From Planctomycetota bacterium (lineage in GTDB: Bacteria; Planctomycetota; PLA2; JAEUHO01), in contig JAJDEN010000026.1 in assembly GCA_029259775.1 (NCBI GenBank), forward strand, positions 60,059 through 124,058: a stretch of DNA of 64,000 bases, in the 5' to 3' direction. Position 1 is the first letter of the stretch, and each line of letters begins with the position of its first letter. This document shows positions 3,314 through 36,217 of the stretch, piece by piece. The notes beneath the pieces were generated by a model, which was not told where the DNA came from, ran no database searches, and saw nothing but the letters and a program-made list of their open reading frames with translations. Made by a program: the position numbers and the translations under genes.

Positions 3314-3324
3314 GGGCGCCAGCG

Positions 3325-5489: not shown

Positions 5490-5499
5490 GATCCACGGC

Positions 5500-6270: not shown

Positions 6271-6284
6271 GGTAGCGTGTCCTC

Positions 6285-6719: not shown

Positions 6720-6830
6720 ACGCGGTCGGTGGCCCGAGTCCCGGTGGCCCGCGTCCCGGTGATCCCAACCCGGCACCGAGAGGCACAGCTGCGGTGACCG
6801 TGAACCTGGTGTGGTACGTCGGGACGAACT

Positions 6831-8288
6831 CTACTTCTTCTTGGCGGCGGCCTTGGCCTTCAGCGCGGCGACCTCGCCCTGGCGGGCGTAGTCGGCCGCG
6901 ATGCCGAGGATGCGTGCCGCCTCCTGCGGAGCGTGGAAGCCCATCGAGTTCTCGGCGGCGATGAAGTCCAAACGCCACTGTGCCTTCCGCTGGAACTCCA
7001 GCGCCGGCTTGATCGCCTCGTCCGTGGCCCCGGCCTTGCGGGCATCGATGATGGCGTCGATCAGATCCATCAGCGCCGCGCCGCCGCGCTGCAGCAACTC
7101 GTGGTTGCGGCTCTGGATGCTGTCCACGCGAGCCTTCAGCTCCTTCTCGTCGACGTGGTGGCACACCTGGCATGCCCGATTGACGTTGAGGAGCGGGCTG
7201 CGCACCCAGTGGTCGCTGATCTTCGTGGCGCCCTCACGCATGTAGGGCATGTGGCAGTCGGCGCACGAGACGCCGCTGCGCGCGTGAATGCCCTGGCTCC
7301 ACAGCTCGTACTCGGGGTGCTGCGCCTTCAGGATCGGCGCGCCCGTCTCCTTGTGCTTGTAGTCGTAGAGGCGCGTGCCGTCCTCGAAGCGAGTCGAGTC
7401 CCAGACCTTCTCCATGTCGTCGACGTTGAGCCCCTTCGCCCAGGGGAAGGTGAGCTTGAACTTGTCGGAGCAGTAGTACTCCACGTGGCACTGGCCGCAG
7501 ACGAAGCTGCGCATCTCCTGGCGCGATGAGTCCTTGTTCGGATCGTAGGGCTTCTTGCGCGAGCCCTTGCGCCAGAGCTCGATCGAGGGGATATGCGGCA
7601 CCTTGCCGTCGCCCGCGGCCAGCGCCTGGATGCCCTGGATGAAACCCGGACGTGTTACGCGCAGCATCATGGACTTGGGCTCGTGGCAATCGACGCAGGA
7701 CACGGGATGCGCATGACCCTCGTCGTGCAGCATCTTGTTGAGGTCCTGGTACGTCATCTTGTGGGTCTTCTCGAAGCCCTTCATCGCGTCGCCGTCGCCC
7801 AGCTTGCGGTAGACGGGCATCAGCGAGGCATGGCAGTGCAGGCACGAGCCGGTCTGCTGCACCTTGTGGCGAGCCGTCTCCTCCTGGTCCTGGAGCATGT
7901 AGGCGTGACCGCGGCGGTCGCGGTAGTCGATCGAGAACGCGTAACCACGGAACATCCGCTCGAGCCACGGGTCGCGCTTGATCTTCTGGGCCGGCAGGGC
8001 CTCGCTACCGCCGTGGCCGCCGAAGCGCGTTCGGGTGCTGAGGGCCGTGCGCAGGTAGGCGTCGTATTGCTTGGGCCAGTTGACACCCCATACCGCCGGA
8101 TCCGTCGTGTCTTCGGTCACCTCGTTCACACGGACGTAGGCTGTGCGCCCCTCGACCTTGCGCTCTGCGATGTTGGCGATAAGCATCGCGCCGCCGATGC
8201 CGACGGCCATCCCGAGTGCGAGGAGCAGAAGCGCCCTCCACGCGATGCCGCCACGGCTGCTGTTCGAGGGCGTCGGGTTCGAAGTCAT
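6831..8288 (-). CDS. nrfA: Cytochrome c nitrite reductase, pentaheme catalytic subunit NrfA
   Basis: Five CXXCH motifs (CLHCH, CVDCH, CGQCH, CADCH, CQVCH). Conserved NrfA blocks: YxxxxxxHxxM, [22 protein letters not shown]. The ATG at 8288 overlaps the nrfH stop by ATGA. The ORF-track 674-aa version includes a spurious N-terminal extension across nrfH. Confidence 0.85.
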
Positions 8289-8788
8289 CGGGTCTCCTGG
8301 CGGAGCTCGGCGTCCCTCATGGGACCACCGAGACCGGCCGTCGCGCCGTGGCCGGCGGAACGGTGGCAATGGGTACAGCGCATCGCATCGCCATCGTGGG
8401 ACGATCCGCGCCGCGTGTCGTGCGTGAGCTCGTTGTGACAGCGGACACAGTTCTCCTGCAGGGTCTTCGCGTTGGCTTCCGTGATCCGGATCGGCTCGGC
8501 GAAGTTCTGCAGTGTGAAAGCGACCGAGTGGTTCCACCCGTTGCGCGCCTTCGAGATGTACTTCTCGGGGAAGGACAGCGGCAGGTGGCAATCGTTGCAC
8601 GTGGCCACACCGTGATGGCTGGACTTCTGCCACGCGTCGAACTGCGGCCGCATGATGTGGCAGTTGAGGCACGCCTTCGGGTCGTTGCTCAGGTACGAGG
8701 CGCCCTCGGCATAGACGAAGGTGAATCCGGCCGCCCCGACGAGCACGCCGAAGAGGAGCACCAGGAGGCAGACTGTGCGATTCCGCAT
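8285..8788 (-). CDS. nrfH: NrfH (NapC/NirT-family tetraheme membrane cytochrome c quinol dehydrogenase)
   Basis: [24 protein letters not shown] anchor. Four CXXCH motifs (CLNCH, CNDCH, CVRCH, CTHCH). ATG at 8788; an in-frame GTG at 8812 is the alternative start used by the ORF track. Confidence 0.85.
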
Positions 8789-8899
8789 CGCGTGGTTCTT
8801 GCCCCCGCCCACGTCGCGCCCCTACGGCGCCACGGCCCTCTAGATAGGTCCGCAAGGGTACCGCGGTACCGAACCCGGTACTGAACCGGGTGCAGGTGC

Positions 8900-8913
8900 A
8901 TCACAATTGTGAT
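8900..8913. promoter_or_regulatory. Perfect 14-bp palindrome ATCACAATTGTGAT in the nrfHA upstream region (candidate regulator-binding site)
   Basis: Read directly at 8900-8913, ~90-115 bp upstream of the nrfH start. Neighbouring palindromes GGTACCGCGGTACC (8848-8861) and ACCCGGT-actga-ACCGGGT (8866-8884). Confidence 0.3.
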
Positions 8914-9106
8914 CGATCCGTGCCAGGTGATCTCTTGGTCGAGGCGGTTCGACGCTTCGCTGGCGCGTCCGTCCAGCGTCACCATGCACGTTGGCGGCTC
9001 GCAACAGGACTCGGTTCCCACCGCGCGTGACACCGACCGGCCCGGACGCAAGCCGGCCCGGCGGACGTGCGTCCGCCGGGCCAGAGGTGCCGTAGCTGCC
9101 CGAGTG

Positions 9107-10984
9107 CTAGCGGACCGTGCGGTAGCGGACGTCGGTGTGGTCCGTGGCGGCGTTTTCCTGGAACCAGACCAGCGTGCCCAGTCCCATGGCGTCGAGATGG
9201 ACCGCGGGCGCCTCGGCAACGTCCCCGGGCGTCGTGTTCAAGAAGTCCACCGACCCGACGAGGCCGTCGGGCGCGATGTGCACGCCGGGCAGCGTGCGCG
9301 CGGCGCCACCCAAGGCGGTGTCCGGCTCGGTCCAGACGACCAGGCCGCCGCCACCGGGACCCGCCGCAACGGCGATGTCGTTGATCGTCTCCGTACCGGT
9401 GATCCTGCGCAGCAGGAGGTTGGGGACGACGGTGCCGTCGCGACGGACGAGGCCCGCCTTGAGCGTGTCCTCGGGATCCGTCGTCGTCTCCGTCCAGGTT
9501 GCGAGGAGTTCGCCACCGGGGGTGAGGGACACCTCCAGGTCGCCGCCGTCGACGCCGACGATCTGGGGCGCCGAGAGCAGGATCGGCTCGATGGCCCCGG
9601 TCGCCGGGACGTAGCGCACAGCGCGGACGTAGCCGACGTCACTGGCGTCCTCCACGAGGGAGTAGACCGCGTAGAACCGGTTGTCGGCCGTCACGTACAT
9701 GCCGTAGTCGCTCAGCTCGCCGCGATCGGCGCTGACCGGAACGGGCGCCTGCCAACCGGGGTTCGGCTCGCCGCTCGGCACGTAGGTGGCCAGGTGGGGG
9801 ACCTCCTCGTAGCTGGTAGGACCGTCGTTCTGCGCCAGCAGTGCGACAGTCGTGCCGTTCGGCGCGACCGCGAGTCCGCGCATCCAGCAGGAGCGGGCGC
9901 TGAAGGTCTCGAGCAGGTGCTGGCTCTGCCAACCCGTGCCTGCCTCGTAGTAGGCGGCGTAGGCGCTGGTCACGCCGGTTGCATCGAGTTGCTGCCAGCT
10001 TACGGCAGCATCGCCGCGGGCGTTGGCGCGCACGAACATCGTCCCCGCGCTGCCCACTTCGTCGTCGAAGTAGGCGTAGTCCTCGAGGACACCGGCGGCG
10101 GTGCGTCGGCGTGCGCCCACGCGGGTGTCGCCCGTGTTCGTGTCCATCTCCTGCCAGCCGAAGAACGCGTTGCCATCGTCGTCGATCGCCACGCGCGGCG
10201 TGCCCATCGTGCGGCCCGACCAGGACTGAAAGAGGCCGACGTTGCTCCAGTCGTCGGTGGCGCGGTCGTAGACCATGTAGTAGCCCAGGTCGCCGTTGCT
10301 GTTCGCGCGCTTCCACGCCCAGACGGCGTCACCGCGCGCATTGACGGCAACGCTCTGCTCACCGAATCTCTCGCCGTTGACCTGCACGAGGGGCTTGCGT
10401 GCCTCGAAGTCCTCGCCGGCGGGCTTGAAGCGCGCGCTGTACTCGGTGTTGCCGGTGCTACGCACCACGCCGTAGAGCGCGATGCCGTTGCCGTTGGGAT
10501 GCGCCTTCACGATGGACGTGACGGCGGTATCCGAGACGGTCTCGAGGTACTTCGCATCCTCGAACGCCGGTGCGCGCGTCTCGAAGCCGAAGGCGAAGGA
10601 CTCGGCGCTGTGGCCGCCCGCGGCCAGCGGAAGGCCAGGCATCAGATCGACCGTGTGCTCGGAGCCAATGGGAAGCCCACTCGTGGGTACGAAGGTGAGG
10701 CGCCGCGTGGCGTCGTTGTAGCTCCACGTGCCCGCGACCGGGCCGCCGGAGGTGCGGACGCCGAGGTGGCTCGCCAGGTCGGCCGCCGGATCGATGTCCA
10801 CGGAGACGTCGATCCGGATCTCTGAGGACTCCATGACGTCTTGGGCGTTGTCCGCCGGGTAGGTCGCGAGGACTTCCAGCGGGGGAACGACGGGCGCCGC
10901 TCCACCGCCGCCTCCGCCGCAGGCGGCGAGGCAGAGGGTGAGCGAGAGGAGGGCGAGCAGGTTGTAGAGGGTGCGGGAGGGCAT
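9107..10984 (-). CDS. Lipoprotein with N-terminal SbsA-type Ig-like (Big_5) domain and repeated beta-propeller-like C-terminal region
   Basis: Internal ATG at 10984 preceded by GGAGAAG RBS. MPSRTLYNLLALLSLTLCLAACGGGGGG lipobox. LEVLATYPADNAQDV...IRIDVSVDID is typical of the SbsA_Ig/Big_5 domain. Repeated G(D/N)A(A/V)xxW motifs. Confidence 0.65.
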   Translation of the reverse strand: MPSRTLYNLLALLSLTLCLAACGGGGGGAAPVVPPLEVLATYPADNAQDVMESSEIRIDVSVDIDPAADLASHLGVRTSGGPVAGTWSYNDATRRLTFVPTSGLPIGSEHTVDLMPGLPLAAGGHSAESFAFGFETRAPAFEDAKYLETVSDTAVTSIVKAHPNGNGIALYGVVRSTGNTEYSARFKPAGEDFEARKPLVQVNGERFGEQSVAVNARGDAVWAWKRANSNGDLGYYMVYDRATDDWSNVGLFQSWSGRTMGTPRVAIDDDGNAFFGWQEMDTNTGDTRVGARRRTAAGVLEDYAYFDDEVGSAGTMFVRANARGDAAVSWQQLDATGVTSAYAAYYEAGTGWQSQHLLETFSARSCWMRGLAVAPNGTTVALLAQNDGPTSYEEVPHLATYVPSGEPNPGWQAPVPVSADRGELSDYGMYVTADNRFYAVYSLVEDASDVGYVRAVRYVPATGAIEPILLSAPQIVGVDGGDLEVSLTPGGELLATWTETTTDPEDTLKAGLVRRDGTVVPNLLLRRITGTETINDIAVAAGPGGGGLVVWTEPDTALGGAARTLPGVHIAPDGLVGSVDFLNTTPGDVAEAPAVHLDAMGLGTLVWFQENAATDHTDVRYRTVR

Positions 10985-16047: not shown

Positions 16048-17046
16048 CTAGGCGTCGTCGTCGCCCTTGCGCACGAAGGCCTTGCGCAAGCGGATCTCGT
16101 TGCCGGTCTCGTTCCACGAGACCTCGTCCATGTAGTGACAGATCAGCGTGATGCCGCGACCATGAAGCGCCGTCGTGGCAGCCGGCGGACGCGCCACATG
16201 TCCCTCGTGATCGAAGCCCGGGCCCTCATCACGGATGGAGTACACCGCGCAGTCCTGCTGGTACTCGACCTGCACGAAGATGTGCCGCGCCGCCAGCTTG
16301 GGATCCTTCAGGCGCTTCTTCACCAACTTCAGGATGCCCTCCGGCTCCTGCAGCACACGCGTCTTCTCGTCGTAGGAGATCTCGAGGTTGCCGTGCTCGT
16401 AGGCGTTGGCCAACGCCTCGTAGAGCGCAAGCTTGATCTCCGTGATCGGCACGTCGTAGCCGGGGTAGCCGTACTGCAGTTCACGCCCCAGGTAGGCGAC
16501 CACCTTCGACAAGATGCCCGTGCCGCTCTGGAAGCTGAGGCTCGTCGCGCGACGATCCACCAGGTCGAGCACGTCATGGATGTCAGCCTGCTCCTCGATT
16601 GCCTTGTAGATCTGGTCGAGGACGAACTGGATCTCCTCGCGGTCGAACGGCTTGCGAAGCAGGTTGACCGCGCCGAGGGAGAGCGCTCGCTCCGTCGTCT
16701 CGGGATCCGTCGTCGAGGACACGATCACGACCGGCACCGAAGGATCGTGATCGCGGATGCGCGAGAGCGCCGCGAGCCCGCCCAGCCTCGGCATGTTGAG
16801 ATCGAGGATGATCAGATCCGGCACGACCGAGCGGGCCGCGGCCACGCCTTCCTCACCGTCGACGGCCTCCACGACCTCGAAACCGCGTTGCTCGGCAAGC
16901 CGACGCAGGAGCAGACGCGTCTCCGCGTCGTCGTCCGTAATCAGCGCCCGCGGCCGGCTTCGTCGTCGCTCGGTGATGGGACCATCCTCCGTCGGGCGGG
17001 TTCTCGCAGCCTGAGATACCGCCTCAGCCGCTCCGCGTGAAGGCAT
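16048..17046 (-). CDS. Response regulator receiver domain fused to GHKL/HATPase-like (RsbW/SpoIIAB-type anti-sigma-factor-like) domain
   Basis: REC motifs: ALITDDDAETRLLLRRL...VPDLIILDLNMPRLGG...LLRKPF. C-terminal GHKL region: ...YEALANAYEHGNLE...IRDEGPGFDH...GRGITLICHYMDEV. Divergent from the Ser/Thr kinase gene (100-bp intergenic). Confidence 0.75.
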   Translation of the reverse strand: MPSRGAAEAVSQAARTRPTEDGPITERRRSRPRALITDDDAETRLLLRRLAEQRGFEVVEAVDGEEGVAAARSVVPDLIILDLNMPRLGGLAALSRIRDHDPSVPVVIVSSTTDPETTERALSLGAVNLLRKPFDREEIQFVLDQIYKAIEEQADIHDVLDLVDRRATSLSFQSGTGILSKVVAYLGRELQYGYPGYDVPITEIKLALYEALANAYEHGNLEISYDEKTRVLQEPEGILKLVKKRLKDPKLAARHIFVQVEYQQDCAVYSIRDEGPGFDHEGHVARPPAATTALHGRGITLICHYMDEVSWNETGNEIRLRKAFVRKGDDDA

Positions 17047-17146
17047 TCCATGCGCGCAGCCGTTCTCGAGGGGTACAAGCGCCCGCCGTCCCGCGTATTC
17101 TCAGCGCCCGGCGGGGCCACCGCCATCAGGCCTGGGGAGGCCCCAC

Positions 17147-25255: not shown

Positions 25256-25350
25256 CGGCGGGACCCGTGACAAAACGCTTCGGCGCCGCCTCGGCAGGGG
25301 CGGGCGGCCGGCGGGCCCGGTACCTTCACCAGCCCCCTCCGGAGAGCCCC

Positions 25351-27336
25351 ATGCACATCGCCCCGCAGACCCCCGACGGCCGCATCACGGCCGTGCGCCC
25401 CGCCCCCGGGGGAGCGCTGGGGATCGACATCGCCTTCCCCGTCGATCCGGCCTTCCGGGCCCTGGTCACCGGTCGCGAGGCCGAGGTGATCTTCGCGGCT
25501 CGCAGCCGGATCGCCCGCCTGGGGATCGATGTGACACCCTCGGGGCCCATGACCTGGGACGGCGACCGGCTGTGCCTCGCCGCCACGGTGACGTGCAACG
25601 TCCCCGCCTACGGCGTCGAGCCCTTCCTCGAGCGCGTCCTGCTGCCGGGGATCCGCATCGGCCGCCTCGTCTTCTGCCCGGCCGAGCGCCGGCTGGGCTC
25701 GGACGAGATCGACGAGGCCGTGCGGGACAACCTGCTGCAGTTGCCCGCGGCGTACTCGATCGACTACGAAGGCCGCTTCCGCATCCGGCCTGAAGGCTGG
25801 GTCTACGACCTGTCGGAGCCGATGTCGCTGGCGTCGCTCACCACGATCCTCACGCGCGCGGACGGGAAGGACCTGCTGAACCGCATCCAGACACGCCGTG
25901 CGGTCGACCGCATCGTGCTCGAGCCCGGCAAGGGCGTGATCACGTCCTGTTCGATGTTCTTGCACAAGCACTACGTCGTGCTCGAGAGCGAAGACACCTC
26001 GCTTGGCCATCATCTGGAAGCCGTGTGCATGGACCCGATCAGCACGCGCGGCACGAACATCTTCCTCGAGTTCGCCAACCGCAGCGACCGCCGCATCGTG
26101 AACCCGACTGTTGCCGCGGCGCTCTACCACGCGGTGCCGGAGGACCTGGAGCCGCGACGATGGTACGGCTCGGTCGACCTCCAGCCCGCCGCTCCGGATC
26201 CCGTGTCCGAGGCGACCGCCGAGTACGAGCGGCTCGCGCCGGTGTTCGATCGCCTCGAGGTCGCGAGCGAGGACGAGCACTACGCCCACCGCATGATCGC
26301 CGTCGTCACCGACCTGCCGGCCCTTCTCGATGGAGGTGCCCCCGACCTGCTCTGGCGTCGACCGAGCGACGGCTGCGAGCCGACCGAAGGGGAGGACCTC
26401 TCCGCGGAGCAGATCCGCCATCGCGTGATCACCAACGCAGTCGACGCCTCGTACGGCACGTGCGTGCTCAACGACGTGCCTGCCGGAGCGGGCATCACCC
26501 TGCTGCTTGGCTACTTCCCGAACCTGATCGAGCACACCCAGATTTGCCAAGCTGCGCTCGAGCGCAAGATCGCGCGCATCATCTTCCGCCGTGCCTCGTT
26601 CGAGCACGGGAGCTTCTTCTCCGCGCGCGATCACGGTCGGCTCGCCGACTACGAGACCCTTGGCATGGAAGTGTTCTGGTGCCATGACGAGCGGCGGCAC
26701 GTGGTGAGGCACGTCTTTCGCGGCCTGCGCGGCTACTTCATGGAGCCGCACACGGTCGATCGCTTCAAGTCGGCACTCATCTTCGCGGCGTACGGCTCGG
26801 CGCGTCCCCTCGGCGACGACGAGGTCGCCAAGGTCTCGCGCTTGCTCGAGAACCTCCAGGCGTTCTTCGGCAGCGACATCGCGATCATGACGGGCGGTGG
26901 TCCCGGCGCGATGCAGCAGGCCACGGACATCGCGCAGGGCATGGGCATGCTGGTTGGCGCGAGCTTCATCGAGACCGTCGACCAACAGACCAACCAGACC
27001 GCCGAGTTCTATCAGACCTTCCAAGGCCGCAGCCGTCAGGCGCGCCAGCGCTGGTTCGAGGTGGCCGCCTTCCACTGGTTCTTCATGGGCGGTGTCGGCA
27101 CGCTCGAGGAGGTCGGCCTCACGCTGACCGACATGAAGCTGGGCGTCATCGAGCGCTCGCCGCTCGTGTTCTTCGGTCGCCACGACGGCCAGACGTACTG
27201 GGACAGCCTCCAGCGCCAATTCGCGACGATGGTCGAGGTTGGCCGCGCCCCGGCCTGGCTCACGGAAAACGTCCTCGTCACCGACGATCCCGATGAGGTG
27301 CCTCGGTTCTACAAGCGCATCCTCGAGCTCGGTTGA
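25351..27336 (+). CDS. Large (661 aa) protein with C-terminal LOG-family (TIGR00730/lysine-decarboxylase-like, PpnN/SLOG-type Rossmann) domain; N-terminal ~440 aa uncharacterised
   Basis: C-terminal motifs IAIMTGGGPGAMQQATDIAQGMG (GGGxGxM) and FMGGVGTLEEVGLTLTD (PGGxGTxEE) match LOG-family signatures. GGAGAG RBS before ATG 25351. The longer antisense ORF 24682-27351 has no motifs. Confidence 0.75.
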   Translation: MHIAPQTPDGRITAVRPAPGGALGIDIAFPVDPAFRALVTGREAEVIFAARSRIARLGIDVTPSGPMTWDGDRLCLAATVTCNVPAYGVEPFLERVLLPGIRIGRLVFCPAERRLGSDEIDEAVRDNLLQLPAAYSIDYEGRFRIRPEGWVYDLSEPMSLASLTTILTRADGKDLLNRIQTRRAVDRIVLEPGKGVITSCSMFLHKHYVVLESEDTSLGHHLEAVCMDPISTRGTNIFLEFANRSDRRIVNPTVAAALYHAVPEDLEPRRWYGSVDLQPAAPDPVSEATAEYERLAPVFDRLEVASEDEHYAHRMIAVVTDLPALLDGGAPDLLWRRPSDGCEPTEGEDLSAEQIRHRVITNAVDASYGTCVLNDVPAGAGITLLLGYFPNLIEHTQICQAALERKIARIIFRRASFEHGSFFSARDHGRLADYETLGMEVFWCHDERRHVVRHVFRGLRGYFMEPHTVDRFKSALIFAAYGSARPLGDDEVAKVSRLLENLQAFFGSDIAIMTGGGPGAMQQATDIAQGMGMLVGASFIETVDQQTNQTAEFYQTFQGRSRQARQRWFEVAAFHWFFMGGVGTLEEVGLTLTDMKLGVIERSPLVFFGRHDGQTYWDSLQRQFATMVEVGRAPAWLTENVLVTDDPDEVPRFYKRILELG

Positions 27337-27652: not shown

Positions 27653-28879
27653 ATGCGAGCGAGAACGTGGACGGCTGCTGCCCTGCTGTGCGTCTTCGCC
27701 TGCGGTGCGTGCCTCGCGGCCTGCGGCGGAGCAGGCGGGGGCCCGCCGTCGGTCGACACCTCGTTCGTGGACCTCTCGACGTTCAGCCCGGCCGCGCTCG
27801 TCCTCGGGCAGCCCATCTTCGCGCTGGGCGACGCCAACCAGGGTCAGCTCGTCCCCGGCCCCAGCACGATGGCGCGGCCCGGCATGCCGGCCGTCGGGCC
27901 GTTCTACCTGCCCGACATCAGCAACCACCGCGTGCTCGGCTACAACCAGCCGCCGGTCTTCAGCAACATCGCCGCCAACTTCGCCCTGGGCCAGCCGGGT
28001 CTCGCCTTCAACATCCAGGGGGTGGGGCCGACGGCGCTCAGACGCCCGACGTGCGCCGCCGTCTCCGGCGGCCGCCTCTTCGTCAGCGACAGCGGCAACC
28101 ACCGCGTGCTCATCTGGCGCACGCTCCCGGACCGCAACGCCGCACCGGCCGACATCGCGCTCGGCCAGCCCGACCTCGTGACGGCAGGGGTCGGTGCGGG
28201 CGCGGCCGACATGCAGGAGCCGGCCGGTCTGTGCGTTGCCGGGGACAAGCTGCTCGTGTGCGATCGCCTCAACCACCGCGTGCTGATCTGGACGACCGCA
28301 CCCAGCGCCAGCGGCGCGCCGGCCGATCTCGTGCTCGGGCAGGCGGACTTCGACGTCAACCTGCGCAATGCGGGTGGGCGCGCCGGCGCCTCGACCTTGG
28401 CCGATCCGACGTCGGTATGGACCGACGGCGCGCGCGTCCTCGTGGCCGACCGCGGCAACCACCGCGTGCTCGTGTGGACGAGCTTCCCGACGCAGAGCGG
28501 GCAGCCGGCGGATCTGGTGCTGGGCCAGCAGTCCTTCGACCGCGCAGCACCCGGGGTGGGGCCGACGCGCTTGTTCTTGCCGAGCGACGTCACGTCCAAC
28601 GGCCGGCAGGTCTTCGTGGCCGATGCCGGCAACCACCGCGTGCTGGCATGGCACGAGTTCCCCGAAGTGGATGGGGCGCCTGCGCGCGCCGTCCTGGGGC
28701 AGGCGACCTTCGAGCACAGCGTCCCCAACGACGAAGACCAGGACGGCACACCGGACGCCGGGCCGGGGCCACGCACGTTCCGGAGCGTGGACGCGATGCT
28801 CACCGTGAGGGTGTTCGAGAACCTGCTCTACGTCGGTGATACCGGCAACCACCGCCTGCTCGTCTTCCGCGGAGAGTAG
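27653..28879 (+). CDS. NHL-repeat (six-bladed beta-propeller) lipoprotein
   Basis: MRARTWTAAALLCVFACGACLAACGG lipobox (alternative ATG 27632). Six repeats of (S/D)xGNHRVLxW...LGQ. The 546-aa ORF-track version has an unlikely N-terminal extension across the tandem repeats. Confidence 0.75.
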   Translation: MRARTWTAAALLCVFACGACLAACGGAGGGPPSVDTSFVDLSTFSPAALVLGQPIFALGDANQGQLVPGPSTMARPGMPAVGPFYLPDISNHRVLGYNQPPVFSNIAANFALGQPGLAFNIQGVGPTALRRPTCAAVSGGRLFVSDSGNHRVLIWRTLPDRNAAPADIALGQPDLVTAGVGAGAADMQEPAGLCVAGDKLLVCDRLNHRVLIWTTAPSASGAPADLVLGQADFDVNLRNAGGRAGASTLADPTSVWTDGARVLVADRGNHRVLVWTSFPTQSGQPADLVLGQQSFDRAAPGVGPTRLFLPSDVTSNGRQVFVADAGNHRVLAWHEFPEVDGAPARAVLGQATFEHSVPNDEDQDGTPDAGPGPRTFRSVDAMLTVRVFENLLYVGDTGNHRLLVFRGE

Positions 28880-28947
28880 TTCGCCCTAGCCCATCCCCAG
28901 CCGCCGCCCCTGACGCACGCAGGTGCGAGGTTGTGCGAGGTGCCAGG

Positions 28948-29043
28948 TGAGAGGTGGTGAGAGGTGGTGCGAGGTCGTGCTCGTGTGTCTCGTGCGAGTG
29001 TGCGTGCGCTCGTGGGTGTGGGAGTTGGGGTGGGTGTGAGAGG
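28948..29043. repeat. GT-rich ~90-bp intergenic element, copy 2
   Basis: gtgagaggtggtgagaggtggtgcgaggtcgtgctcgtgtgtctcgtgcgagtgtgcgtgcgctcgtgggtgtgggagttggggtgggtgtgagagg lies between the NHL gene (stop 28879) and the convergent histidine kinase (stop 29055). Confidence 0.6.
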
Positions 29044-29054
29044 GCTCAGAGCAC

Positions 29055-29873
29055 CTACCCCGGCACGGTCGCCGGGATGTCGAAGCGGATCGTCGTCCCC
29101 GCCGGTGACGTGATCACGCGGATCACGCCGCCCAACCTGCGTATCGTCTGACGCACGAGGAAGAGCCCCAGGCCGTTGCCGCCCTTCGCGGCGCGACCCG
29201 TCACGAACGGGCGCCAGAGGCGCGGCCTCAGGTACTCGGGGATGCCCAAACCATCGTCCTGCACCTCGACGCGGCACGTGCTGCCGTCCACGATGGACGC
29301 GCGCATGGCGACGTTGCCGGGTCCGCCATCGCACGCCGTGACCGCGTTCGTACCGAGGTTCACAAGCGCTTGGACGAGCAAACGTTGTTCGCCCATGAGT
29401 ACGGCGTCCTGCTCGACCTGATGGACCAGCGAGATGTCCTCACTCGCTGCGAGCGGACGCACGAGGCGCGCTGCCTCGCGCAACACCTCCGACACGCGGA
29501 AGGACTCGAGCTCGGACTCTTCCTGACGGCCTGCGAATGCGAGCACGGTCCGGATCGTCTCGGAGATCTCCTCGCACCGCGAGGGGACCTCCTTCAGCGC
29601 GTCGCGCCAGACCGTCGGATCGCTGCTGCGCGACGCCATGTAGGCGTCGCCGCTGATGAGCATCGAGTAGTTGGCGACCTCGTGCACGAGGCCAGCCGTG
29701 ATGAGCCCGGTGTGGGCGAGGCGCTGCTGCTGCGCGAGCATGACGAGCAGGCGCTCACGCTCCTTGCGCCAGGCGGCTCGCTCGAGCTCGATGTCCGAGA
29801 GCGCGTCGCGGGGGCCGGTCTGTGCCGCGCCACCGCCGCTCGGACCCATGTTGTTCAGGAAGGGCTGGGTCAT
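29055..29873 (-). CDS. Cytoplasmic sensor histidine kinase (HisKA + HATPase_c; no TM segment)
   Basis: Start at ATG 29873 (MTQPFLNNMG...), overlapping the upstream stop by ATGA. H-box LITAGLVHEVANYSM. G-boxes QALVNLGTNAV, DDGLGIP, GGNGLGLFLVRQ. The 356-aa ORF-track version adds an Arg-rich spurious extension. Confidence 0.8.
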   Translation of the reverse strand: MTQPFLNNMGPSGGGAAQTGPRDALSDIELERAAWRKERERLLVMLAQQQRLAHTGLITAGLVHEVANYSMLISGDAYMASRSSDPTVWRDALKEVPSRCEEISETIRTVLAFAGRQEESELESFRVSEVLREAARLVRPLAASEDISLVHQVEQDAVLMGEQRLLVQALVNLGTNAVTACDGGPGNVAMRASIVDGSTCRVEVQDDGLGIPEYLRPRLWRPFVTGRAAKGGNGLGLFLVRQTIRRLGGVIRVITSPAGTTIRFDIPATVPG

Positions 29874-30235
29874 CGGGTGCCCCCTTCGTTGGGTACGCTG
29901 CAGACGAGCGCGAGAGGACCGGAGCCGACGTGCAAGGTCTGCGCGCCGTCGACGTGCAGCGCACTGACGGAGAACTGGCCGAAGGCGTCGGTCTCGACGG
30001 GGTCCGCGTCGCCGCCCAGCCGCACGGTCGCGCCCGGGACGCCGCGTTCGCACGCCTCCTCGATCACCTGGCCGTGGGCCACCTGCAGGCCGCCGGAGGG
30101 CGGCAGCACGAGCATGTCGACGCACAGGCCATCCGCGCGGAACAGCAGGCTGCGCTCCGCCGCCGCAACCGAGCGGAAGCCCGGTAGGGCGCCGACGCGC
30201 GCCGAATCAAACACGAGCTTGGCTTGAAGCGACAT
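29870..30235 (-). CDS. Small (121 aa) CarbopepD_reg-like/transthyretin-like beta-sandwich protein
   Basis: ...VRLGGDADPVETDAFGQFSVSAL... matches the VxTDxxGxFxL motif of carboxypeptidase-regulatory-like domains. The stop overlaps the HK start (ATGA). Start at 30235 overlaps the upstream gene by 29 nt. Confidence 0.55.
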   Translation of the reverse strand: MSLQAKLVFDSARVGALPGFRSVAAAERSLLFRADGLCVDMLVLPPSGGLQVAHGQVIEEACERGVPGATVRLGGDADPVETDAFGQFSVSALHVDGAQTLHVGSGPLALVCSVPNEGGTR

Positions 30236-30632
30236 GGGCGCCTCCTTCGTAGATCAAGAGGCAGGGCGCCGCGCGGCTCGCACCGAGCGCGAGCACGTAG
30301 CGGCCCGAGGCCTTGCCATGCAACTGAAACTCGCCGAACGCATCCGTCTCGGCACGGGCGACGCACGTGAGGCCGCCTGTCTCGTAGAGCGCGAGCGGAA
30401 GCTGTGCGATCGCCTCCTGGATGCGTTCCGCGCCCGTTACCTGGCCGACGATCTCGATCCGTCCCTCACCCAGCATGCGGATGAGGACATCGATCTCGTA
30501 GGGCCCGACGCCGGCGATGAGCTGCAGATCGGGGATCGATCCGGAGCGCAGGTCCGTGCGCCGGGGCGCCGGCCGCGGCCGTGTTGGGTGGTCGAGGTGC
30601 AAGGGCCGCGTGGTGATGGCGAGGTGGTTCAT
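30207..30632 (-). CDS. Small (141 aa) CarbopepD_reg-like/transthyretin-like beta-sandwich protein
   Basis: ATG 30632 overlaps the S8 peptidase stop (ATGA). ...CVARAETDAFGEFQLHGKASGRYVLAL... motif. No signal peptide. Confidence 0.6.
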   Translation of the reverse strand: MNHLAITTRPLHLDHPTRPRPAPRRTDLRSGSIPDLQLIAGVGPYEIDVLIRMLGEGRIEIVGQVTGAERIQEAIAQLPLALYETGGLTCVARAETDAFGEFQLHGKASGRYVLALGASRAAPCLLIYEGGAHVASSQARV

Positions 30633-31771
30633 CGCGTCACCGCCTTCCACAGGTTGAGGGAGCCATGCCAGAGGTAGCGTCCGTCCGCGCCGCGCACAGG
30701 GTCCGCAGCATGGCGCAGGCGCCACATCAGCTCGGTGGAGGACTTGTCCGGGTGCAGCGAGCGCAGCAGCGCCGCCGCCCCGCTGACGAGACCGGCGGAG
30801 AACGAAGTGCCGCTCCAGTAGCCGCTGCTGTGGTCCCAGCCGAGGCCGAGCGGGCCATAGAGATCGACGCCAGGCGCGTAGATCACGATGCGCGACGGGT
30901 CCTTCGAGGCATTGGAGAACTCGGCGACGCGGTTGTGGCGATCCACCGAGCCGACCGTGATCGTGTCGTTCCAGTCACCCAACTGGGAGACTTCCTCCAC
31001 CCCGTCGTTGCCGGCCGAGTTCACGATGACGACGCCGGAAGCGCGCATGTCCGCGATGAGGCGCGCGATCCTCTGCTTGCGGCCGGTCGTGGGCATGGCG
31101 GAGACGTTCACGATCTGGGCGCCCATGGCCCACGCGAAGCGCAGCCCGTACTCCAGTTCCTTGTCCGTGCCCCAGCCCTCGTCGTCCCGCACGCGGATCG
31201 GAAGGATCGTCGCGTCGGGCGCGGCCAAGAGGACCATGCCCGCAACGAACGTGCCGTGGCCGACACCGCTGTCCGTGATCCCGTCCCGGTCGTCGTCGTA
31301 GCCGTCACCGAGGTCATGCGGGTCGAAGTCCAGGTCCACCGCGTCGAAGCCCCACGGCAAGACCCGGCCCGCGATCTCGGGGTGATCCAGGTTGAAGCCG
31401 CCGTCGAGCACCGCCACGAGGACGCCGCCGCCGCGCGTCAGGCGGTGGGCGTCGCGGCTGCGTAGCTGCTCTTGGGTCGTGTGCACGCTGAACAGCAGGT
31501 CGCCGTCGAGGATCGGGGTCGTCGTCGGGTCGCTGTCCGAGCGATGCTCGAGCAAGCGCGCCGGCAGCGTGCCCGGATGCGTCGATCCGGGCTTGGCGTA
31601 ACGCGCTTCGTAGGCACGGCGGAGGCGGTCGAACTGCTGGAGCTTGCGCACCCAGCCGGGTGTGGCATCACCCTCAGCGGAGACAGTAGGCGCCGTACCA
31701 AGGAAGAACAGCAGGGCCGCGAGCAGCGCGGCGACCCAGCGCCCAGGCTGGTGGCGTGTGGCAATCATCAT
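30629..31771 (-). CDS. Secreted S8-family (subtilisin-like) serine peptidase
   Basis: Signal peptide MMIATRHQPGRWVAALLAALLFFLGTAPTVSA. Catalytic Asp (VAVLDGG), His (GVGHGTFVAG) and Ser (GTSFSAG) in canonical order, with N oxyanion (NSAGN). Start 3 nt after the CHAT gene stop. Confidence 0.85.
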   Translation of the reverse strand: MMIATRHQPGRWVAALLAALLFFLGTAPTVSAEGDATPGWVRKLQQFDRLRRAYEARYAKPGSTHPGTLPARLLEHRSDSDPTTTPILDGDLLFSVHTTQEQLRSRDAHRLTRGGGVLVAVLDGGFNLDHPEIAGRVLPWGFDAVDLDFDPHDLGDGYDDDRDGITDSGVGHGTFVAGMVLLAAPDATILPIRVRDDEGWGTDKELEYGLRFAWAMGAQIVNVSAMPTTGRKQRIARLIADMRASGVVIVNSAGNDGVEEVSQLGDWNDTITVGSVDRHNRVAEFSNASKDPSRIVIYAPGVDLYGPLGLGWDHSSGYWSGTSFSAGLVSGAAALLRSLHPDKSSTELMWRLRHAADPVRGADGRYLWHGSLNLWKAVTR

Positions 31772-31774
31772 CGG

Positions 31775-34714
31775 TCAATTTCCTTCGAGGGTCGTGGGGA
31801 GCACGGACTTCGCCGTGGCCTGGTGGGATGCCGCGCCTGTGCTGGCGTGCAAGGAACGCGCGGCGGTGCGGGGAGTCGTGGCGCCCATCAGGAAGAAGGG
31901 CGCCCAGTAGTACGGGTGCGGGTAGTCGGCGCGGACGACGGCCATCGCGTCGCGTTGGGCGGCGGCCGCGTCCCGGCCATCGCGCAGCGCCTCGTAGAAG
32001 GCCTGCATGAACGTCGCCGCGGCGCCGTCGTGCACGCGCCACTGGCTGCAGAGCAGGGCGGGCGCGCCCGCGGAGAGGAAGCCGCGTGCGAGGCCCTGGA
32101 TTTCGTTGCCGGCATTCCAACCGGCCACACCGCTCTCGCAGGAGGAGACGACGACCAGCTCGCCCGTCACGCAGAGGGAGCCCAGGTCGTAGGGCGTCAC
32201 CCAGCCGTCGCCCAGCCGGATCGCGGAGAGTCGCGGGTTCGAGCGCCGGAACATGCCGTGGGTGGCGATGTGCAGGATGCGCGCTCGGCCTGCTGCCTCG
32301 CGCAGCTTCGCGAAGCTCGCGTCGGCGCCGAGCTTGAGGTCGCGCGTGCCGAGGAGGGCGGCGACGGCGCGCGACTCGCTCTCGACCTGCGGTACGCCCT
32401 CGTCCGGCACGCCGAAGACCGCCGCGTCCCCCGTGGCCTGCGGCACCCGGCTCTTGCAGTGGTGGTAGACCGCTGCGCTCGGCGTATAGAGCACCTCGAA
32501 GCGATCGCAGAGCCAGCCGTCGCCCCACGGCAGGGCGTGGAAGGGAAGACCATGCAGCGGGCCGTGGGGCGAAATCACCAGGCGCTTGCCGCGCAGCGTG
32601 TCCGCGATCGGGTCCAGCACCATCTCGGCCAGGCGAGACAGGTTGTCGCGCGTTGCGCGTAGCACCAGGTCTTCTGCTACGACCGAGGGGCGCTCGTGCT
32701 TGGCGAGATGGAATCGGAAGCGTCCGAGCCGCTCCTCGATCTCCCCCGCCCCGACGGCGATGCACTGGGCGCGAACTTCCTCGCGCGTCACGACGAAGGC
32801 CACGAGGCCCGTCTTGGTGACCAGGTAGTCGATCAGTACCGTGTCCGCCGCGAGGTGCCGGCGCAGCGTCCGGGGTGACGGTACCGCGACCGCGCCCGCC
32901 GTCGTGCCGCCCCGGCCTTGGGCACGCAGCAGGGACTGCAACTCGCCCTCGAGTTCACCCGCGCGCGTGTTCACGGTCGCGGCGGTCTCGACGGCGTCCT
33001 GCTCCGCGCCGCCGCCGCTACGGAGCAGTTTCCAGTACAGCGCGTTCAGCGCTTCGCGCACCACGCGGATCCGGGTCGCGTGCAGACCGTCCGTCGGCGC
33101 TTCGACGCTCTCGCCGGCAAGCATGTCGAGCAGCGCGCGTGACTTGGCGCGCTCGGTGTAGGCGAACGCCTGCTCGACGTCGCCCGCATCGCACAGCAGC
33201 TGCACGAGCGCCTCGTACATCTCGGCGCGCGCACCAAGGAAGGCGGTCATGTACTCGTCCGGCGGGACGCCTGCGCGCTGACGCTCCAGCACGTCGATCG
33301 CGATCTGGTAGGAGGCGATGGCCAGCTTGGCGTTGCCGCCGGATGCGTAGGCACGGGCCTCGACGCGCCGGGCTTCGATCACCATCCAGGGTGCGTGCAC
33401 CCGTCGGCAGCGCACCAGCACCATGCGGGCGTGGCTCAGGGCGTCCGTGTACTGCTTGGCGGCCAGGGCGAGGTTCGCCCGGAGAAGGCTGACCGTGGCG
33501 TTCTCGAGTGGGTTCGTGCTGCCCTCGACCAACGCACGCGCCTCGAGGGTGAACCGCCGCGCAGCGGAGCGCAGGCCCAGGCGCTGCGCCGTGTAGGCCT
33601 GCTGCACGGCGCACCCGACTTCGCGCGCCGCGAGACCCAGGCCGGCGAAGAGCTCGCGCGCCAGCGCGTACCCGGATGCGGCGGCCTGCAGCTCACCCGT
33701 CATGGCGGCGGCGCGGGCCGCGAAGTAGGCGGCTTGCGCACGGTCCTTGTCGAGACCCAGCTCCTCGAAGGCGGCCGAGGCGCGCTCGGCGAAGCCGCGG
33801 GCGTCCTCGGGCAGGTTGAGGAAGAGATGCACCTCCGCCCGGTCGAGGTCGATGTGGGCCAGACGCATGCCGTCGCCCAGCTCCGTCAAGCGCTCTTCGA
33901 TGGCAGCGTAGCGGTCCAGCGCCTCGTCGTAACGACCGCGCAGGACCGCGGAGTAGGCGAGGTTGTAGTCCATGCTCGCCGTCGTGTGGTCGCAGCCCTC
34001 CGCCTCGAACATGTCGCGTGCGATCTGGAACCAGCGCGCGGCCGCCCGGAAGCGGTTGCACGCCTGGAGCGCGGCGGCACGGTTGGCCGCGACGGTTGCC
34101 CGCAGGCGCACGGGGCTGTCGTGGGGGAGCAGCCACTCGACCTGACGGAACTGGCGCAGGGCGTCGCGCGGCTTGTCGAGCTGCTTCGCCAGGTTGGCCA
34201 AGGCGAGCCGGATGCGGATGACGCCGCGAACATCGTTTCGTTCCTCGAACGTGCGCAGGACCTGCCGGCCGACCTCCTCGGCCTCGGCGAAGCGCTCGAG
34301 CTGGGTGAGCGCCTGCACACGGAGCGCGCGAAGCTCGGCGCGCTCCTGGGCACCGCCGGCGGGACGCAGCAGGGCGAGAGCGTCGTCGATCGCGCGGAGC
34401 GACTCGGGGAAGCGACCGATGAGAAGCGCTGCCTGGGAAAGCGTGCGGAGGGCGCGTCCCTCCATCGCGACGTCTTCGAGGCGGCGGGCGACGTGCAGGG
34501 CGAGCCGTGCGCGCTGGCGTGCCTCCGCGGGGTCCGTGCGCATGCAGGCGGTCGCTGCGCCGAGCAGGCCTTCACCCAACGACGCCGAGAAGAACGGCCG
34601 CCCTGCCCTCAGATCCCGGGCGCGCGACGCGTACGTCGGCCGCTCGAGCACGGACGTGAGCAGCTGCTCTGCCTGCAAGGAACCCCACCGCACCGCGACG
34701 CGAGAGCGGCCCAA
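31775..34714 (-). CDS. TPR-repeat protein with C-terminal CHAT (caspase-like) peptidase domain
   Basis: N-terminal ~650 aa are Ala/Leu-rich TPR-like repeats. The C-terminal domain carries the CHAT catalytic dyad context: ARILHIATHGMF (His) and GELVVVSSCESG (Cys), plus FLSAGAPALLCSQW. The true start may be downstream of 34714. Confidence 0.8.
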   Translation of the reverse strand: MGRSRVAVRWGSLQAEQLLTSVLERPTYASRARDLRAGRPFFSASLGEGLLGAATACMRTDPAEARQRARLALHVARRLEDVAMEGRALRTLSQAALLIGRFPESLRAIDDALALLRPAGGAQERAELRALRVQALTQLERFAEAEEVGRQVLRTFEERNDVRGVIRIRLALANLAKQLDKPRDALRQFRQVEWLLPHDSPVRLRATVAANRAAALQACNRFRAAARWFQIARDMFEAEGCDHTTASMDYNLAYSAVLRGRYDEALDRYAAIEERLTELGDGMRLAHIDLDRAEVHLFLNLPEDARGFAERASAAFEELGLDKDRAQAAYFAARAAAMTGELQAAASGYALARELFAGLGLAAREVGCAVQQAYTAQRLGLRSAARRFTLEARALVEGSTNPLENATVSLLRANLALAAKQYTDALSHARMVLVRCRRVHAPWMVIEARRVEARAYASGGNAKLAIASYQIAIDVLERQRAGVPPDEYMTAFLGARAEMYEALVQLLCDAGDVEQAFAYTERAKSRALLDMLAGESVEAPTDGLHATRIRVVREALNALYWKLLRSGGGAEQDAVETAATVNTRAGELEGELQSLLRAQGRGGTTAGAVAVPSPRTLRRHLAADTVLIDYLVTKTGLVAFVVTREEVRAQCIAVGAGEIEERLGRFRFHLAKHERPSVVAEDLVLRATRDNLSRLAEMVLDPIADTLRGKRLVISPHGPLHGLPFHALPWGDGWLCDRFEVLYTPSAAVYHHCKSRVPQATGDAAVFGVPDEGVPQVESESRAVAALLGTRDLKLGADASFAKLREAAGRARILHIATHGMFRRSNPRLSAIRLGDGWVTPYDLGSLCVTGELVVVSSCESGVAGWNAGNEIQGLARGFLSAGAPALLCSQWRVHDGAAATFMQAFYEALRDGRDAAAAQRDAMAVVRADYPHPYYWAPFFLMGATTPRTAARSLHASTGAASHQATAKSVLPTTLEGN

Positions 34715-35014: not shown

Positions 35015-36217
35015 ATGCGCACCCTCACATTGATCTTCGCTCTCCTCTTCGCGGTCGGCTGCGGCTCCAGCATCGGGGCCCTCCTCAGCAACCAGGTACT
35101 GCTCTTCGCGACGTTCCAACCCATGACGTATCAGCTCGGCCAGCCGAGCTTCACGTCGGGCACCGCGAACCAAGGCAACGCGAATCCGTCCGCGACGTCG
35201 CTTCGGTTCCCGGGCGCGGGCATGGCAGGCGGTACCAACTTCTACGTACCCGACGCGGGCAACAACCGCGTGCTGGGCTACACGAGCGTGCCCAATGTCT
35301 CGATGCGGGCCGCCGACTTCCCGATCGGTCAGGCCACCCTCGCCACCGCCGCGACGGGGACGTCCTCGGGCGCGATGAACAACCCCCTCGCCCTATGGGC
35401 CACGAGCTCGCACCTGTTCGTGAGCGACACGGGCAACAACCGCGTCCTCATCTTCGCGGGTGCGCCCGTGAGCTCGGGCTCGACGGCCAGCTTCGTGCTG
35501 GGCCAGACGGGCTTCGGGCTGAACGGCACGGGTGGGACCGCCACGACGATGGACAGCCCGGTCGGGATCTGCAGCGCGAACGGCAAGCTGCTCGTCTGCG
35601 ATCGCGACAACAACCGCGTGCTGATCTGGAACTCGATCCCGAGCGCCAACGGCGTGGCGGCGGACCTCGTCTTGGGGCAGGCGAATCTCTCGAGTGTGCT
35701 GCCCAACCGTGGGGCTACCCCCGCGGCGAACACGCTGAACTGGCCGTGGGGCGTCTGGACCGACGGCACGATCGTGGCGGTCGCCGACGCGGCAAACCAT
35801 CGCGTGCTGATCTGGAACTCGTTCCCCACGACGAACGGCCAGCCGGCGGACGTGGTGTTGGGTCAAGCCGGCTTCACGACGTCAGGGGCCGGTCTCACGG
35901 CGACGTCCTTCAACGTGCCGACGGACGTGACGTCGAACGGGATCCAGCTCTTCGTGGGCGACTGCGAGAACAACCGCGTCCTCCTCTGGGACACGTTCCC
36001 GACCGTCAACCAGGCCGCGCCGAACAAGGTGCTTGGTCAGGGTGACTTCACGCACGGCCGCCAGAATGACGACGACCAGAACACGGTGGACGACGGGCAG
36101 CCCTCGCAGCGGACGCTCAACAGCGCAGGTGGCTTCCTGTTCGTCCGTCTGGACCAGAGCAATCTGTTCGTCGGCGACCACCGCAACCACCGCGTGGGCA
36201 TCTGGCGCGGCAACTGA
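35015..36217 (+). CDS. NHL-repeat beta-propeller lipoprotein (paralog of 27653-28879)
   Basis: MRTLTLIFALLFAVGCGSS lipobox. Repeated DxGNNRVLIW...LGQ blades. Divergent from the CHAT gene. Confidence 0.75.
   Translation: MRTLTLIFALLFAVGCGSSIGALLSNQVLLFATFQPMTYQLGQPSFTSGTANQGNANPSATSLRFPGAGMAGGTNFYVPDAGNNRVLGYTSVPNVSMRAADFPIGQATLATAATGTSSGAMNNPLALWATSSHLFVSDTGNNRVLIFAGAPVSSGSTASFVLGQTGFGLNGTGGTATTMDSPVGICSANGKLLVCDRDNNRVLIWNSIPSANGVAADLVLGQANLSSVLPNRGATPAANTLNWPWGVWTDGTIVAVADAANHRVLIWNSFPTTNGQPADVVLGQAGFTTSGAGLTATSFNVPTDVTSNGIQLFVGDCENNRVLLWDTFPTVNQAAPNKVLGQGDFTHGRQNDDDQNTVDDGQPSQRTLNSAGGFLFVRLDQSNLFVGDHRNHRVGIWRGN

Follow-up and report, generated by a model that had tools for sequence, protein, structure and literature searches.

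What does a caspase-like protease do in one operon with an exported subtilase, two small proteins and a histidine kinase (HK)? The question was raised by five co-directional open reading frames (ORFs) on the minus strand at 29055-34714 of a 64-kb stretch of Planctomycetota DNA (contig JAJDEN010000026.1; the whole stretch is called the window hereafter), which has a high GC content of ∼65-73% in 2-kb windows. In the order of transcription, they encode a TPR-CHAT protease, an S8 subtilase, two small proteins (small-1 and small-2) and an HK. A sequence-only reading of this DNA had taken them for a translationally coupled protease-cascade signalling module that could not be matched to a named system. 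Our analysis indicated that, in homology and ancestry, the cassette is very probably a sigma-less, kinase-coupled derivative of a module composed of a sigma factor of the extracytoplasmic function (ECF) type, a zinc anti-sigma factor, a TPR-CHAT protease and an S8 subtilase. The earlier statement that no named system fits was too strong, since the cassette appears to derive from this module, and a subtilase, CHAT and carboxypeptidase context has been reported for the sigma factor group ECF54.

The five ORFs and their common direction were confirmed by the ORF list and by an independent gene caller, which reported the same genes (972, 380, 141, 121 and 272 aa) in public contigs carrying this DNA. 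The shorter CHAT protein in these contigs resulted from a preference of the caller for GTG at 34693 as the start codon. When the junctions were read directly from the sequence, they were as described before: the CHAT stop codon (TGA, 31775-31777) was separated by a 3-nt gap from the S8 ATG at 31771; an ATGA at 30629-30632 was common to the S8 stop and the small-1 start; small-1 and small-2 overlapped by 29 nt (30207-30235); and another ATGA at 29870-29873 was common to the small-2 stop and the HK start. A Shine-Dalgarno-like motif of the GAAGG type was observed 6-15 nt upstream of all four internal starts. A promoter and terminator scan gave no signal above the shuffled expectation.

At E ≤ 1e-10, the S8 search returned 292 relatives, of which the closest, apart from the protein itself, was 56% identical, and the named relatives of S8 and HK were mostly metagenome-assembled genomes (MAGs) of Planctomycetota. 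The gene order CHAT-S8-small-small-HK was found in 10 independent contigs, namely the window and L003, L004, L005, L007, L008, L092, L093, L094 and L095. The last two were recovered by a metagenome scan with the HK alignment, which mostly matched generic kinases; among the matches listed, these two were true cassette copies. The overlaps were also kept across loci (4 nt between CHAT and S8 in seven loci, 4 nt between S8 and small-1, and 29 nt between small-1 and small-2 in five contigs). The flanking genes differed between the loci and included those for BipA, pyruvate kinase, an AsmA-like protein, His-tRNA synthetase and cytochromes. The sequence-only reading had staked its proposal on synteny in related genomes and on the coding nature of the small ORFs; the former was found in nine further contigs, and the latter was demonstrated by conservation, by the gene caller and by the predicted folds. 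The recurrence of order and overlaps in other contigs supported a single translationally coupled operon, as had been proposed.

The possibility had to be considered that the cluster was fortuitous and the small ORFs non-coding, because high-GC genomes yield many spurious ORFs and the Pfam search matched no family for small-1 (NCBIfam and PADLOC likewise) and gave only a sub-threshold match for small-2 (CarboxypepD_reg, PF13620, 23.2 bits against a gathering threshold of 32.3). Nevertheless, both small ORFs were kept at 37-60% protein identity in the nine other contigs with the same order and overlaps, they were called independently, and confident folds were predicted for them. A word-indexed homolog search with the small-protein alignment found 10 proteins. 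In an exhaustive profile search against 50%-identity cluster representatives, the best matches were dominated by giant multi-repeat CarboxypepD_reg-like proteins, in agreement with the fold class. Among the best 150 matches, ∼35 were proteins of 120-141 aa that aligned in full length and in a single stretch. A chance cluster with non-coding small ORFs, to which we give virtually no probability, was thus refuted by synteny and conservation, and the five genes form one real, conserved operon.

The relationship of the cassette to sigma factor regulation was found through the small proteins. Alignment showed that small-1 and small-2 are paralogs with shared invariant R, D, G-Q, L, T-D, G and F positions. 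The common motif VETDAFGxF noticed earlier was retained only in its ETDAFGxF part (AETDAFGEF and VETDAFGQF), because the leading residue is A in one protein and V in the other. The AlphaFold2 model of small-1 (predicted local distance difference test score, pLDDT, of 77.5) had a disordered segment at residues 1-31 and a β-sandwich at residues 36-129, with the invariant Arg29 in the disordered N-terminal tail. The model of small-2 (pLDDT of 86.3, predicted template modelling score of 0.80) consisted of an N-terminal strand KLVFD, which corresponds to the 'FDS' motif of the anti-sigma linker, followed by a short helix, a loop and a seven-strand sandwich; the invariant Arg21 was located in the low-confidence loop. 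The confident folds bore out the proposal that both are β-sandwich proteins. They were also considered as precursors of ribosomally synthesized and post-translationally modified peptides or other peptides, and this was rejected because the models showed folded domains rather than leader-core peptides.

Anti-sigma proteins encoded next to sigma factors at other loci could be aligned with small-1 and small-2 in three parts, namely the FDS strand, the invariant Arg and the β-sandwich. The N-terminal H-x3-C-x2-C segment, the zinc anti-sigma motif of those proteins, was absent from both window proteins in the alignment. In Planctomycetota-type cassettes (L007, L008 and L092), small-1 was ∼180 aa long and had an N-terminal extension with an H-x3-C-x2-C-type motif, present in L008 and L092 and in a variant form in L007, and this extension aligned with the sigma-linked anti-sigma factors. 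As judged from these alignments, small-1 and small-2 appear to be homologous to the linker and C-terminal β-sandwich of soluble zinc-type anti-sigma factors, and small-1 of the window appears to be the remnant of an anti-sigma factor after loss of the sigma-binding domain. This ancestry was not recognised in the sequence-only reading.

To place the cassette in a wider context, the S8 alignment was scanned against one genome per species, and 80 S8 loci were examined, with CHAT linkage defined as a distance within 8 kb. A CHAT gene was present at 44 of the 80 loci. It was directly upstream of S8 on the same strand in 19 of these 44, and an ECF sigma ORF occurred in 25 of them. An ORF matching the small-protein profile was found in 13 of the 80 loci, and the profile matched anti-sigma-like ORFs with E values from 3.6e-21 to 1e-4. 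The kinase-type locus was encountered only once among the 80 (L009, which lies on the same contig as L007). The order ECF sigma, ∼200-aa protein, TPR-CHAT and S8 was observed in L014, L017, L018, L020, L021, L023, L031 and L034, which were labelled Chthonomonadaceae, Planctomycetales, Phycisphaerales, Heliobacteriaceae, Anaerolineales and Blastocatellia. Over all loci, this four-gene form was seen in MAGs labelled Blastocatellia, Anaerolineae/Anaerolineales, Planctomycetota, Chthonomonadaceae, Ignavibacteria and Heliobacteriaceae; Actinomycetota loci had the order S8-sigma-CHAT. The kinase-type cassette is therefore a rare derivative, and the four-gene sigma module is much more widespread.

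Most of the ∼200-aa sigma-linked proteins carried the H-x3-C-x2-C motif (L017 and L018 did not), and none had a transmembrane (TM) segment. After the motif, an FDS strand, an invariant Arg and a β-sandwich followed as in small-1 and small-2. In L023, Pfam recognised Sigma70_r2/r4, a CarboxypepD_reg-like domain, TPR-CHAT and an S8 with a Fervidolysin-type prodomain. The CHAT protein of the window was 28-30% identical to that of the sigma-type module over more than 930 residues. The window cassette thus has the domain made of FDS strand, Arg and sandwich, the adjacent TPR-CHAT gene and an exported S8 of the same clade. It lacks two constituents of the module, the H-x3-C-x2-C anti-sigma domain and the ECF sigma gene, and a phmmer search with RpoE found no ECF sigma ORF in the window. 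The changes in the lineage of the window are best seen as loss of the sigma factor, duplication of the anti-sigma gene, its move behind S8, loss of the sigma-binding domain and addition of a kinase clade. Across all variants, the constant core is TPR-CHAT, S8 and the Arg-loop β-sandwich. Because this core persists in every variant, the sandwich domain is most likely a partner or substrate of the CHAT protease, and the sigma factor or the kinase most likely an exchangeable output.

A review attributes to group ECF54 a conserved context of 'carboxypeptidase, subtilase and CHAT', for which proteolytic control was proposed and left untested, and credits its description in Actinobacteria to Huang et al. 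2015 and Casas-Pastor et al. 2021 (PMC8999054). We infer that the sigma-type modules found here correspond to ECF54. Common to the ECF54-type context and the window are a TPR-CHAT protease, an S8 of the same clade and a CarboxypepD_reg-like protein in one neighbourhood. In contrast to that context, the window has no ECF sigma factor, a duplicated anti-sigma remnant without the zinc domain lies behind S8, and an HK ends the operon. A further difference concerns the group itself, which in the same review is described as being without an anti-sigma factor (PMC8999054), whereas the non-actinobacterial modules examined here have a clear soluble anti-sigma factor of the zinc-binding type. The subtilase, CHAT and carboxypeptidase context was therefore already reported; the anti-sigma ancestry of the small proteins and the kinase-coupled variant are new here.

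The TPR-CHAT protein belonged to the CHAT caspase-fold proteases on both counts that were inspected, i.e. the score over the full domain (Pfam CHAT, PF12770, 191.8 bits with the cut-off at 24, spanning positions 3-289 of the 289-position profile) and the His-Cys dyad. TPR repeats were recognised as well (Pfam TPR_12, 54.5 bits against 30.1). His819 (HIATHG) and Cys859 (SSCESG) were invariant in 10 CHAT homologs spanning 28-59% identity, and in alignments with solved structures of Csx29 they matched its HG and C-E motifs, which established the dyad that had been pointed out before. Neither a signal peptide nor a TM segment was found by hydropathy, a hydrophobic segment at the N-terminus was absent, and extension of the ORF upstream is impossible beyond 34723.

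The S8 protein (Pfam Peptidase_S8, 122.2 bits against 21.8) had AK.1 protease and thermitase as its closest relatives in the PDB, and neither a classical prodomain nor a C-terminal extension was present. As claimed earlier, it retained both the catalytic triad and a signal peptide, and each could be followed through 31 homologs. D123, H172 and S323 were invariant and N255 nearly so. The N-terminus was signal-peptide-like, with an h-region followed by VSA↓E and a hydropathy maximum of 1.99 at residue 13; an equivalent N-terminal hydrophobic segment was present in 31 of the 31 aligned homologs, with a lipobox in one. No signal peptide or TM segment was detected by hydropathy in CHAT, small-1, small-2 or HK. 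Because only the S8 clade carries an N-terminal export signal, CHAT and S8 should sit in different compartments: the CHAT protease, the small proteins and the kinase are predicted to be cytoplasmic, and S8 extracytoplasmic. A direct cascade from CHAT to the subtilase, as assumed in the sequence-only reading, appears unlikely because S8 would be exported. The simplest reading is that S8 is a co-expressed extracytoplasmic effector, produced once the module is activated. Autoregulation is common among ECF operons, as also noted in PMC10028731. No other gene accompanied CHAT as consistently as that of S8, in phyla including Actinomycetota, Acidobacteriota, Chloroflexota, Planctomycetota and Armatimonadota.

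An identity of S8 as a mycosin of type VII secretion was rejected, because it scored 141 bits with TIGR03921, below the equivalog cut-off of 278.75, and its only hydrophobic segment is N-terminal, so that the C-terminal membrane anchor of mycosins is missing. There were no ESX-type genes among the called neighbours of the window cassette. Two other features of the S8 clade were noticed (31400-31560, S8 residues ∼70-125). A conserved PTT-P-V-D-D-D motif lies in an N-terminal spacer of ∼70 residues before the catalytic domain, and a conserved acidic GN-G-x-DDD-x-DG insert lies between the catalytic Asp and His; a mini-prodomain or a calcium site is possible.

The HK had the layout of a two-component kinase, with a conserved N-terminal helix, a dimerization and histidine phosphotransfer (DHp) domain with His64, and a HATPase_c domain that contains the N, G1, F and G2 boxes. 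Among the domain families proposed earlier, CHAT, Peptidase_S8 and HATPase_c (69.2 bits against 26.4) were recognised by Pfam, whereas HisKA gave no score at E ≤ 0.01 and the assignment of small-2 stayed below threshold as given above. The HK models of NCBIfam aligned to residues ∼30 to 266, and HKs in the PDB aligned across the H-box. H64, N172/N176, D206-G208-G210 and G232-G234-G236 were invariant in 26 homologs. The homolog family was small and cassette-linked, with 28 proteins at E ≤ 1e-20, all of 221-348 aa and sensor-less, and many of these were encoded on contigs equal in length to contigs with S8 matches. Hydropathy revealed no hydrophobic segment in the HK, and no sensor domain was found. 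No response regulator was present in the operon, and none adjoined the cassette among the called genes of L003, L004, L005, L007, L008, L092 and L093. Both absences, of a TM segment and of a response regulator in the operon, had been noted in the sequence-only reading and were upheld by the hydropathy analysis and the receiver search. The only receiver-domain ORF in the window was found at 16048-17100 (-), 12 kb from the HK gene. This response-regulator-like ORF matched an NtrC receiver query with an E value of 1.1e-17, and nothing links it to the HK.

Proteolytic signalling, as proposed in the sequence-only reading, remained plausible, and a mechanism can be outlined. The TPR array of the CHAT protein would sense an intracellular cue, probably a protein, which would switch on the protease. 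The protease would then recognise the β-sandwich of small-1 and small-2 and cut them in the disordered segment at the invariant Arg, in a hydrophobic-Arg-small motif. In the ancestral module, cleavage of the anti-sigma factor would free the sigma factor. In the window, the intact small proteins would bind the sensor-less kinase, their cleavage would alter its activity, and the kinase would signal onward to a response regulator encoded elsewhere. S8 would be a co-produced extracytoplasmic effector outside any cytoplasmic cascade. We consider the combination of a derivative module with proteolytic gating of the kinase, which is our best explanation of the cassette, to be slightly less likely than not. 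The gating mechanism on its own, which draws on analogy with characterised systems, is proposed tentatively. The most specific form of it is doubtful, in which the cassette would be a CRISPR-independent, Craspase-like switch whose CHAT protease cleaves anti-sigma-derived adaptors at the Arg segment and thereby turns the sensor-less kinase on or off.

The closest mechanistic precedent, by analogy, would be the type III-E Craspase, which comprises Cas7-11, Csx29, Csx30, Csx31 and CASP-sigma. There, Csx30 is recognised through its C-terminal domain by the TPR-CHAT protease Csx29, and a flexible loop within this domain is cleaved, which relieves the inhibition of an ECF-like sigma factor held by the N-terminal domain of Csx30 (PMC10028731). 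The likeness lies in a cytoplasmic TPR-CHAT protease linked to a two-part regulator, and the CHAT protein of the window aligned with Csx29 through His and Cys. Several differences were observed. The window cassette has no Cas7-11, crRNA or CRISPR array, and no Cas-like protein among its called neighbours; the CHAT protein scored 34.4 bits with the Csx29 model NF041237, against a cut-off of 300; no PDB chain named Csx30 was matched by the small proteins; and the output here would be a kinase, with the exported S8 as an added constant partner. The DdvA protein of Myxococcus is a single membrane protein in which a zinc anti-sigma domain is fused, together with a TM helix, to TPR-CHAT; its CHAT part is periplasmic with an incomplete active site, and CHAT-mediated cleavage was proposed as the releasing step (PMC11506125). 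DdvA thus also joins a zinc-type anti-sigma domain and TPR-CHAT within one ECF signalling unit. In the modules found here, however, these parts are separate and predicted to be cytoplasmic, with a complete dyad and no TM segment, and DdvA has no described S8 or HK partner. The kinase itself resembles partner-controlled orphan or sensor-less HKs in having the DHp His and a full ATP-binding domain with no sensor, TM segment or adjacent regulator. In literature searches, no such kinase was found in an operon with CHAT, S8 and an anti-sigma remnant.

Several points weighed against this interpretation. That the CHAT protease binds and cleaves the small proteins and that these contact the kinase would follow by analogy. 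The Arg cleavage site is suggested by conservation and predicted disorder, and characterised CHAT proteases cleave behind residues other than Arg: Csx30 is cut around residues 427-429 (PMC10028731), and the Runella gasdermin after Leu247. A cognate response regulator for the HK was not found in the window or among the called neighbours of its relatives. An output regulator is not obligatory either, given that L089 encodes CHAT, S8, one small-2-like protein (120 aa) and a putative lipoprotein of 237 aa at 5131-10157, with no kinase or sigma factor nearby. Furthermore, the proposed model leaves the role of S8 without explanation, and the coupling of CHAT and S8, by the 4-nt overlap in seven loci and by linkage in many phyla, suggests a closer tie than that of a co-expressed effector.

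This coupling is what speaks for the cascade of the sequence-only reading, in which CHAT would cleave an S8 zymogen, S8 would act as the executioner and the kinase would report the outcome. The two genes lie side by side with translational coupling in nearly every case, activation of a second protease by a CHAT protease is reported for a type III-B CRISPR system (10.1101/2023.06.23.546230), and the window S8 has the conserved N-terminal spacer of ∼70 residues with PTT-P-V-D-D-D and no recognisable prodomain. Nevertheless, we consider this cascade highly unlikely. All 31 S8 homologs carried an export signal or lipobox and the CHAT proteins of the clade carried none, the CHAT ORF of the window being closed to upstream extension; sigma-linked S8 proteins had their own Fervidolysin-type prodomain, as in self-activating subtilases; and both small proteins would be left without a role. 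A role for them is offered by the alternative that they are securin-like pseudosubstrate inhibitors or adaptors of CHAT, the true substrate being the HK or an unlinked protein and the kinase being either the target of CHAT or an input that phosphorylates or regulates it. Separase, in which a TPR-like part is joined to a caspase-fold protease, is kept in check by securin, a pseudosubstrate. A separase-type architecture of TPR-CHAT has been noted in the literature, and the small proteins always accompanied CHAT, even without a sigma factor or HK as in L089, which fits a partner of CHAT better than a partner of the regulator. In the sigma module, however, this domain and a sigma-binding domain are parts of one protein, which suggests a substrate and anti-sigma role as in Csx30, and no sign of a conserved cleavable loop was seen in the HK, though it was not closely examined for this. 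We therefore regard a securin-like role as fairly unlikely.

An anti-phage or abortive-infection function, in which CHAT would sense infection and S8 and/or the kinase would cause growth arrest or envelope damage, was suggested by the company that CHAT proteases keep. They accompany bacterial gasdermins and occur in Craspase (PMC10028731), and the TPR-CHAT anti-sigma factor DdvA controls a defence island (PMC11506125). PADLOC gave weak domain-level matches (BovA, 26.8 bits; subtilase, 69.2 bits). These matches covered only partial domains of CHAT and S8 (BovA at residues 813-930), there were none for the small proteins or the HK, and known anti-phage systems such as Borvo BovA were rejected because no full-length system was matched. 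With PADLOC, NCBIfam and Pfam, only domain-level names and no system-level match were obtained for the cassette. The bacterial gasdermin-protease system was likewise rejected, as Pfam found no gasdermin, nuclease or other toxic effector among the five genes, and no gasdermin-like family was present in the flanks. A scan of viral contigs found no cassette and only two distant S8 genes (25-29% identity), the flanking genes were of housekeeping type and variable between loci, and some copies were decayed: in L008 (7192-10017) an IS66-family transposase gene lies directly upstream of a truncated CHAT gene of 444 aa, and in L005 (6059-9004) the CHAT gene is fragmented. Defence as the function of the cassette thus appears distinctly unlikely. 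A defence-related cue would be compatible with proteolytic gating of the kinase, and these two readings are not strictly exclusive.

Free-standing TPR-CHAT proteins are common in bacteria, and the substrates known to us for TPR-CHAT proteases are those of the CRISPR-linked Csx29 and of an enzyme associated with a gasdermin. The family described here offers a candidate CHAT substrate, a small conserved β-sandwich with one invariant Arg in a disordered segment, together with two outputs that can be read, which are an ECF sigma factor in the majority of lineages and an HK in the lineage of the window, so that sensing and cleavage are directly testable. The swap of sigma factor for kinase would show how various signalling outputs can be attached to a unit for proteolytic sensing. 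If true, the gating proposed here would be a first case of caspase-like proteolytic control of two-component signalling, and it would be an instance of natural rewiring, in which a kinase takes the place of the sigma factor in an anti-sigma module while the exported subtilase remains as the constant partner or effector. Why a cytoplasmic caspase-like protease is so strictly paired with a subtilase that is exported, over many phyla, also deserves to be resolved.

Table 1. Genes of the window cassette, the S8 signal peptide and the codons of residues discussed in the text.
Feature	Position	Strand	Description
TPR-CHAT	31775-34714	-	979 aa from TTG start; caspase-fold protease
CHAT His819	32258-32260	-	codon of dyad His
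CHAT Cys859	32138-32140	-	codon of dyad Cys
S8	30629-31771	-	380 aa; subtilisin/thermitase-type serine protease with export signal
S8 signal peptide	31676-31771	-	∼residues 1-32, predicted; MMIATRHQPGRWVAALLAALLFFLGTAPTVSA↓EG
S8 D123	31403-31405	-	codon of triad Asp
S8 H172	31256-31258	-	codon of triad His
S8 S323	30803-30805	-	codon of triad Ser
small-1	30207-30632	-	141 aa; disordered N-terminal tail and β-sandwich
small-1 Arg29	30546-30548	-	codon of invariant Arg
small-2	29870-30235	-	121 aa; β-sandwich of CarboxypepD_reg / MG-domain type
small-2 Arg21	30173-30175	-	codon of invariant Arg
HK	29055-29873	-	272 aa; soluble sensor-less histidine kinase
HK His64	29682-29684	-	codon of DHp His

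In the window, the cassette was bracketed by two NHL-repeat proteins encoded at 27653-28879 (+) and 35015-36217 (+), with lipobox-like N-termini and 45% mutual identity. The suggestion that these lipoproteins are substrates or partners of the cassette found no support, as no NHL lipoprotein gene was located beside the cassette in any other locus examined. Because the flanks at other loci were unrelated, the NHL lipoproteins are not part of the cassette, which may have been inserted between tandem NHL paralogs. The intergenic region downstream of the HK gene (28880-29054) was C/A-rich and of low complexity, with repeats of the cacccac... and ctcgcac... type, and no terminator-like hairpin was found there in the scan.

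Some loci differed in the number of S8 genes. In L006 (7758-11765), a TPR-CHAT gene was followed by at least four tandem S8 paralogs, and the three N-termini examined were all signal-peptide-like; several other contigs had two or three S8 matches each. Directly upstream of CHAT in L006, a 660-aa Lysine_decarbox (LOG-like) gene was observed at 2102-4084, and in the window an ORF of ∼690 aa was located near the cassette at 25267-27336 (+); the two might represent residual synteny of related genomes. Three related contigs, L003 (11750-12559), L004 (15838-16644) and L093 (11761-12585), carried an N6_N4 DNA methyltransferase gene downstream of the cassette at a distance of one to four genes, which probably reflects lineage synteny rather than a part of the module.

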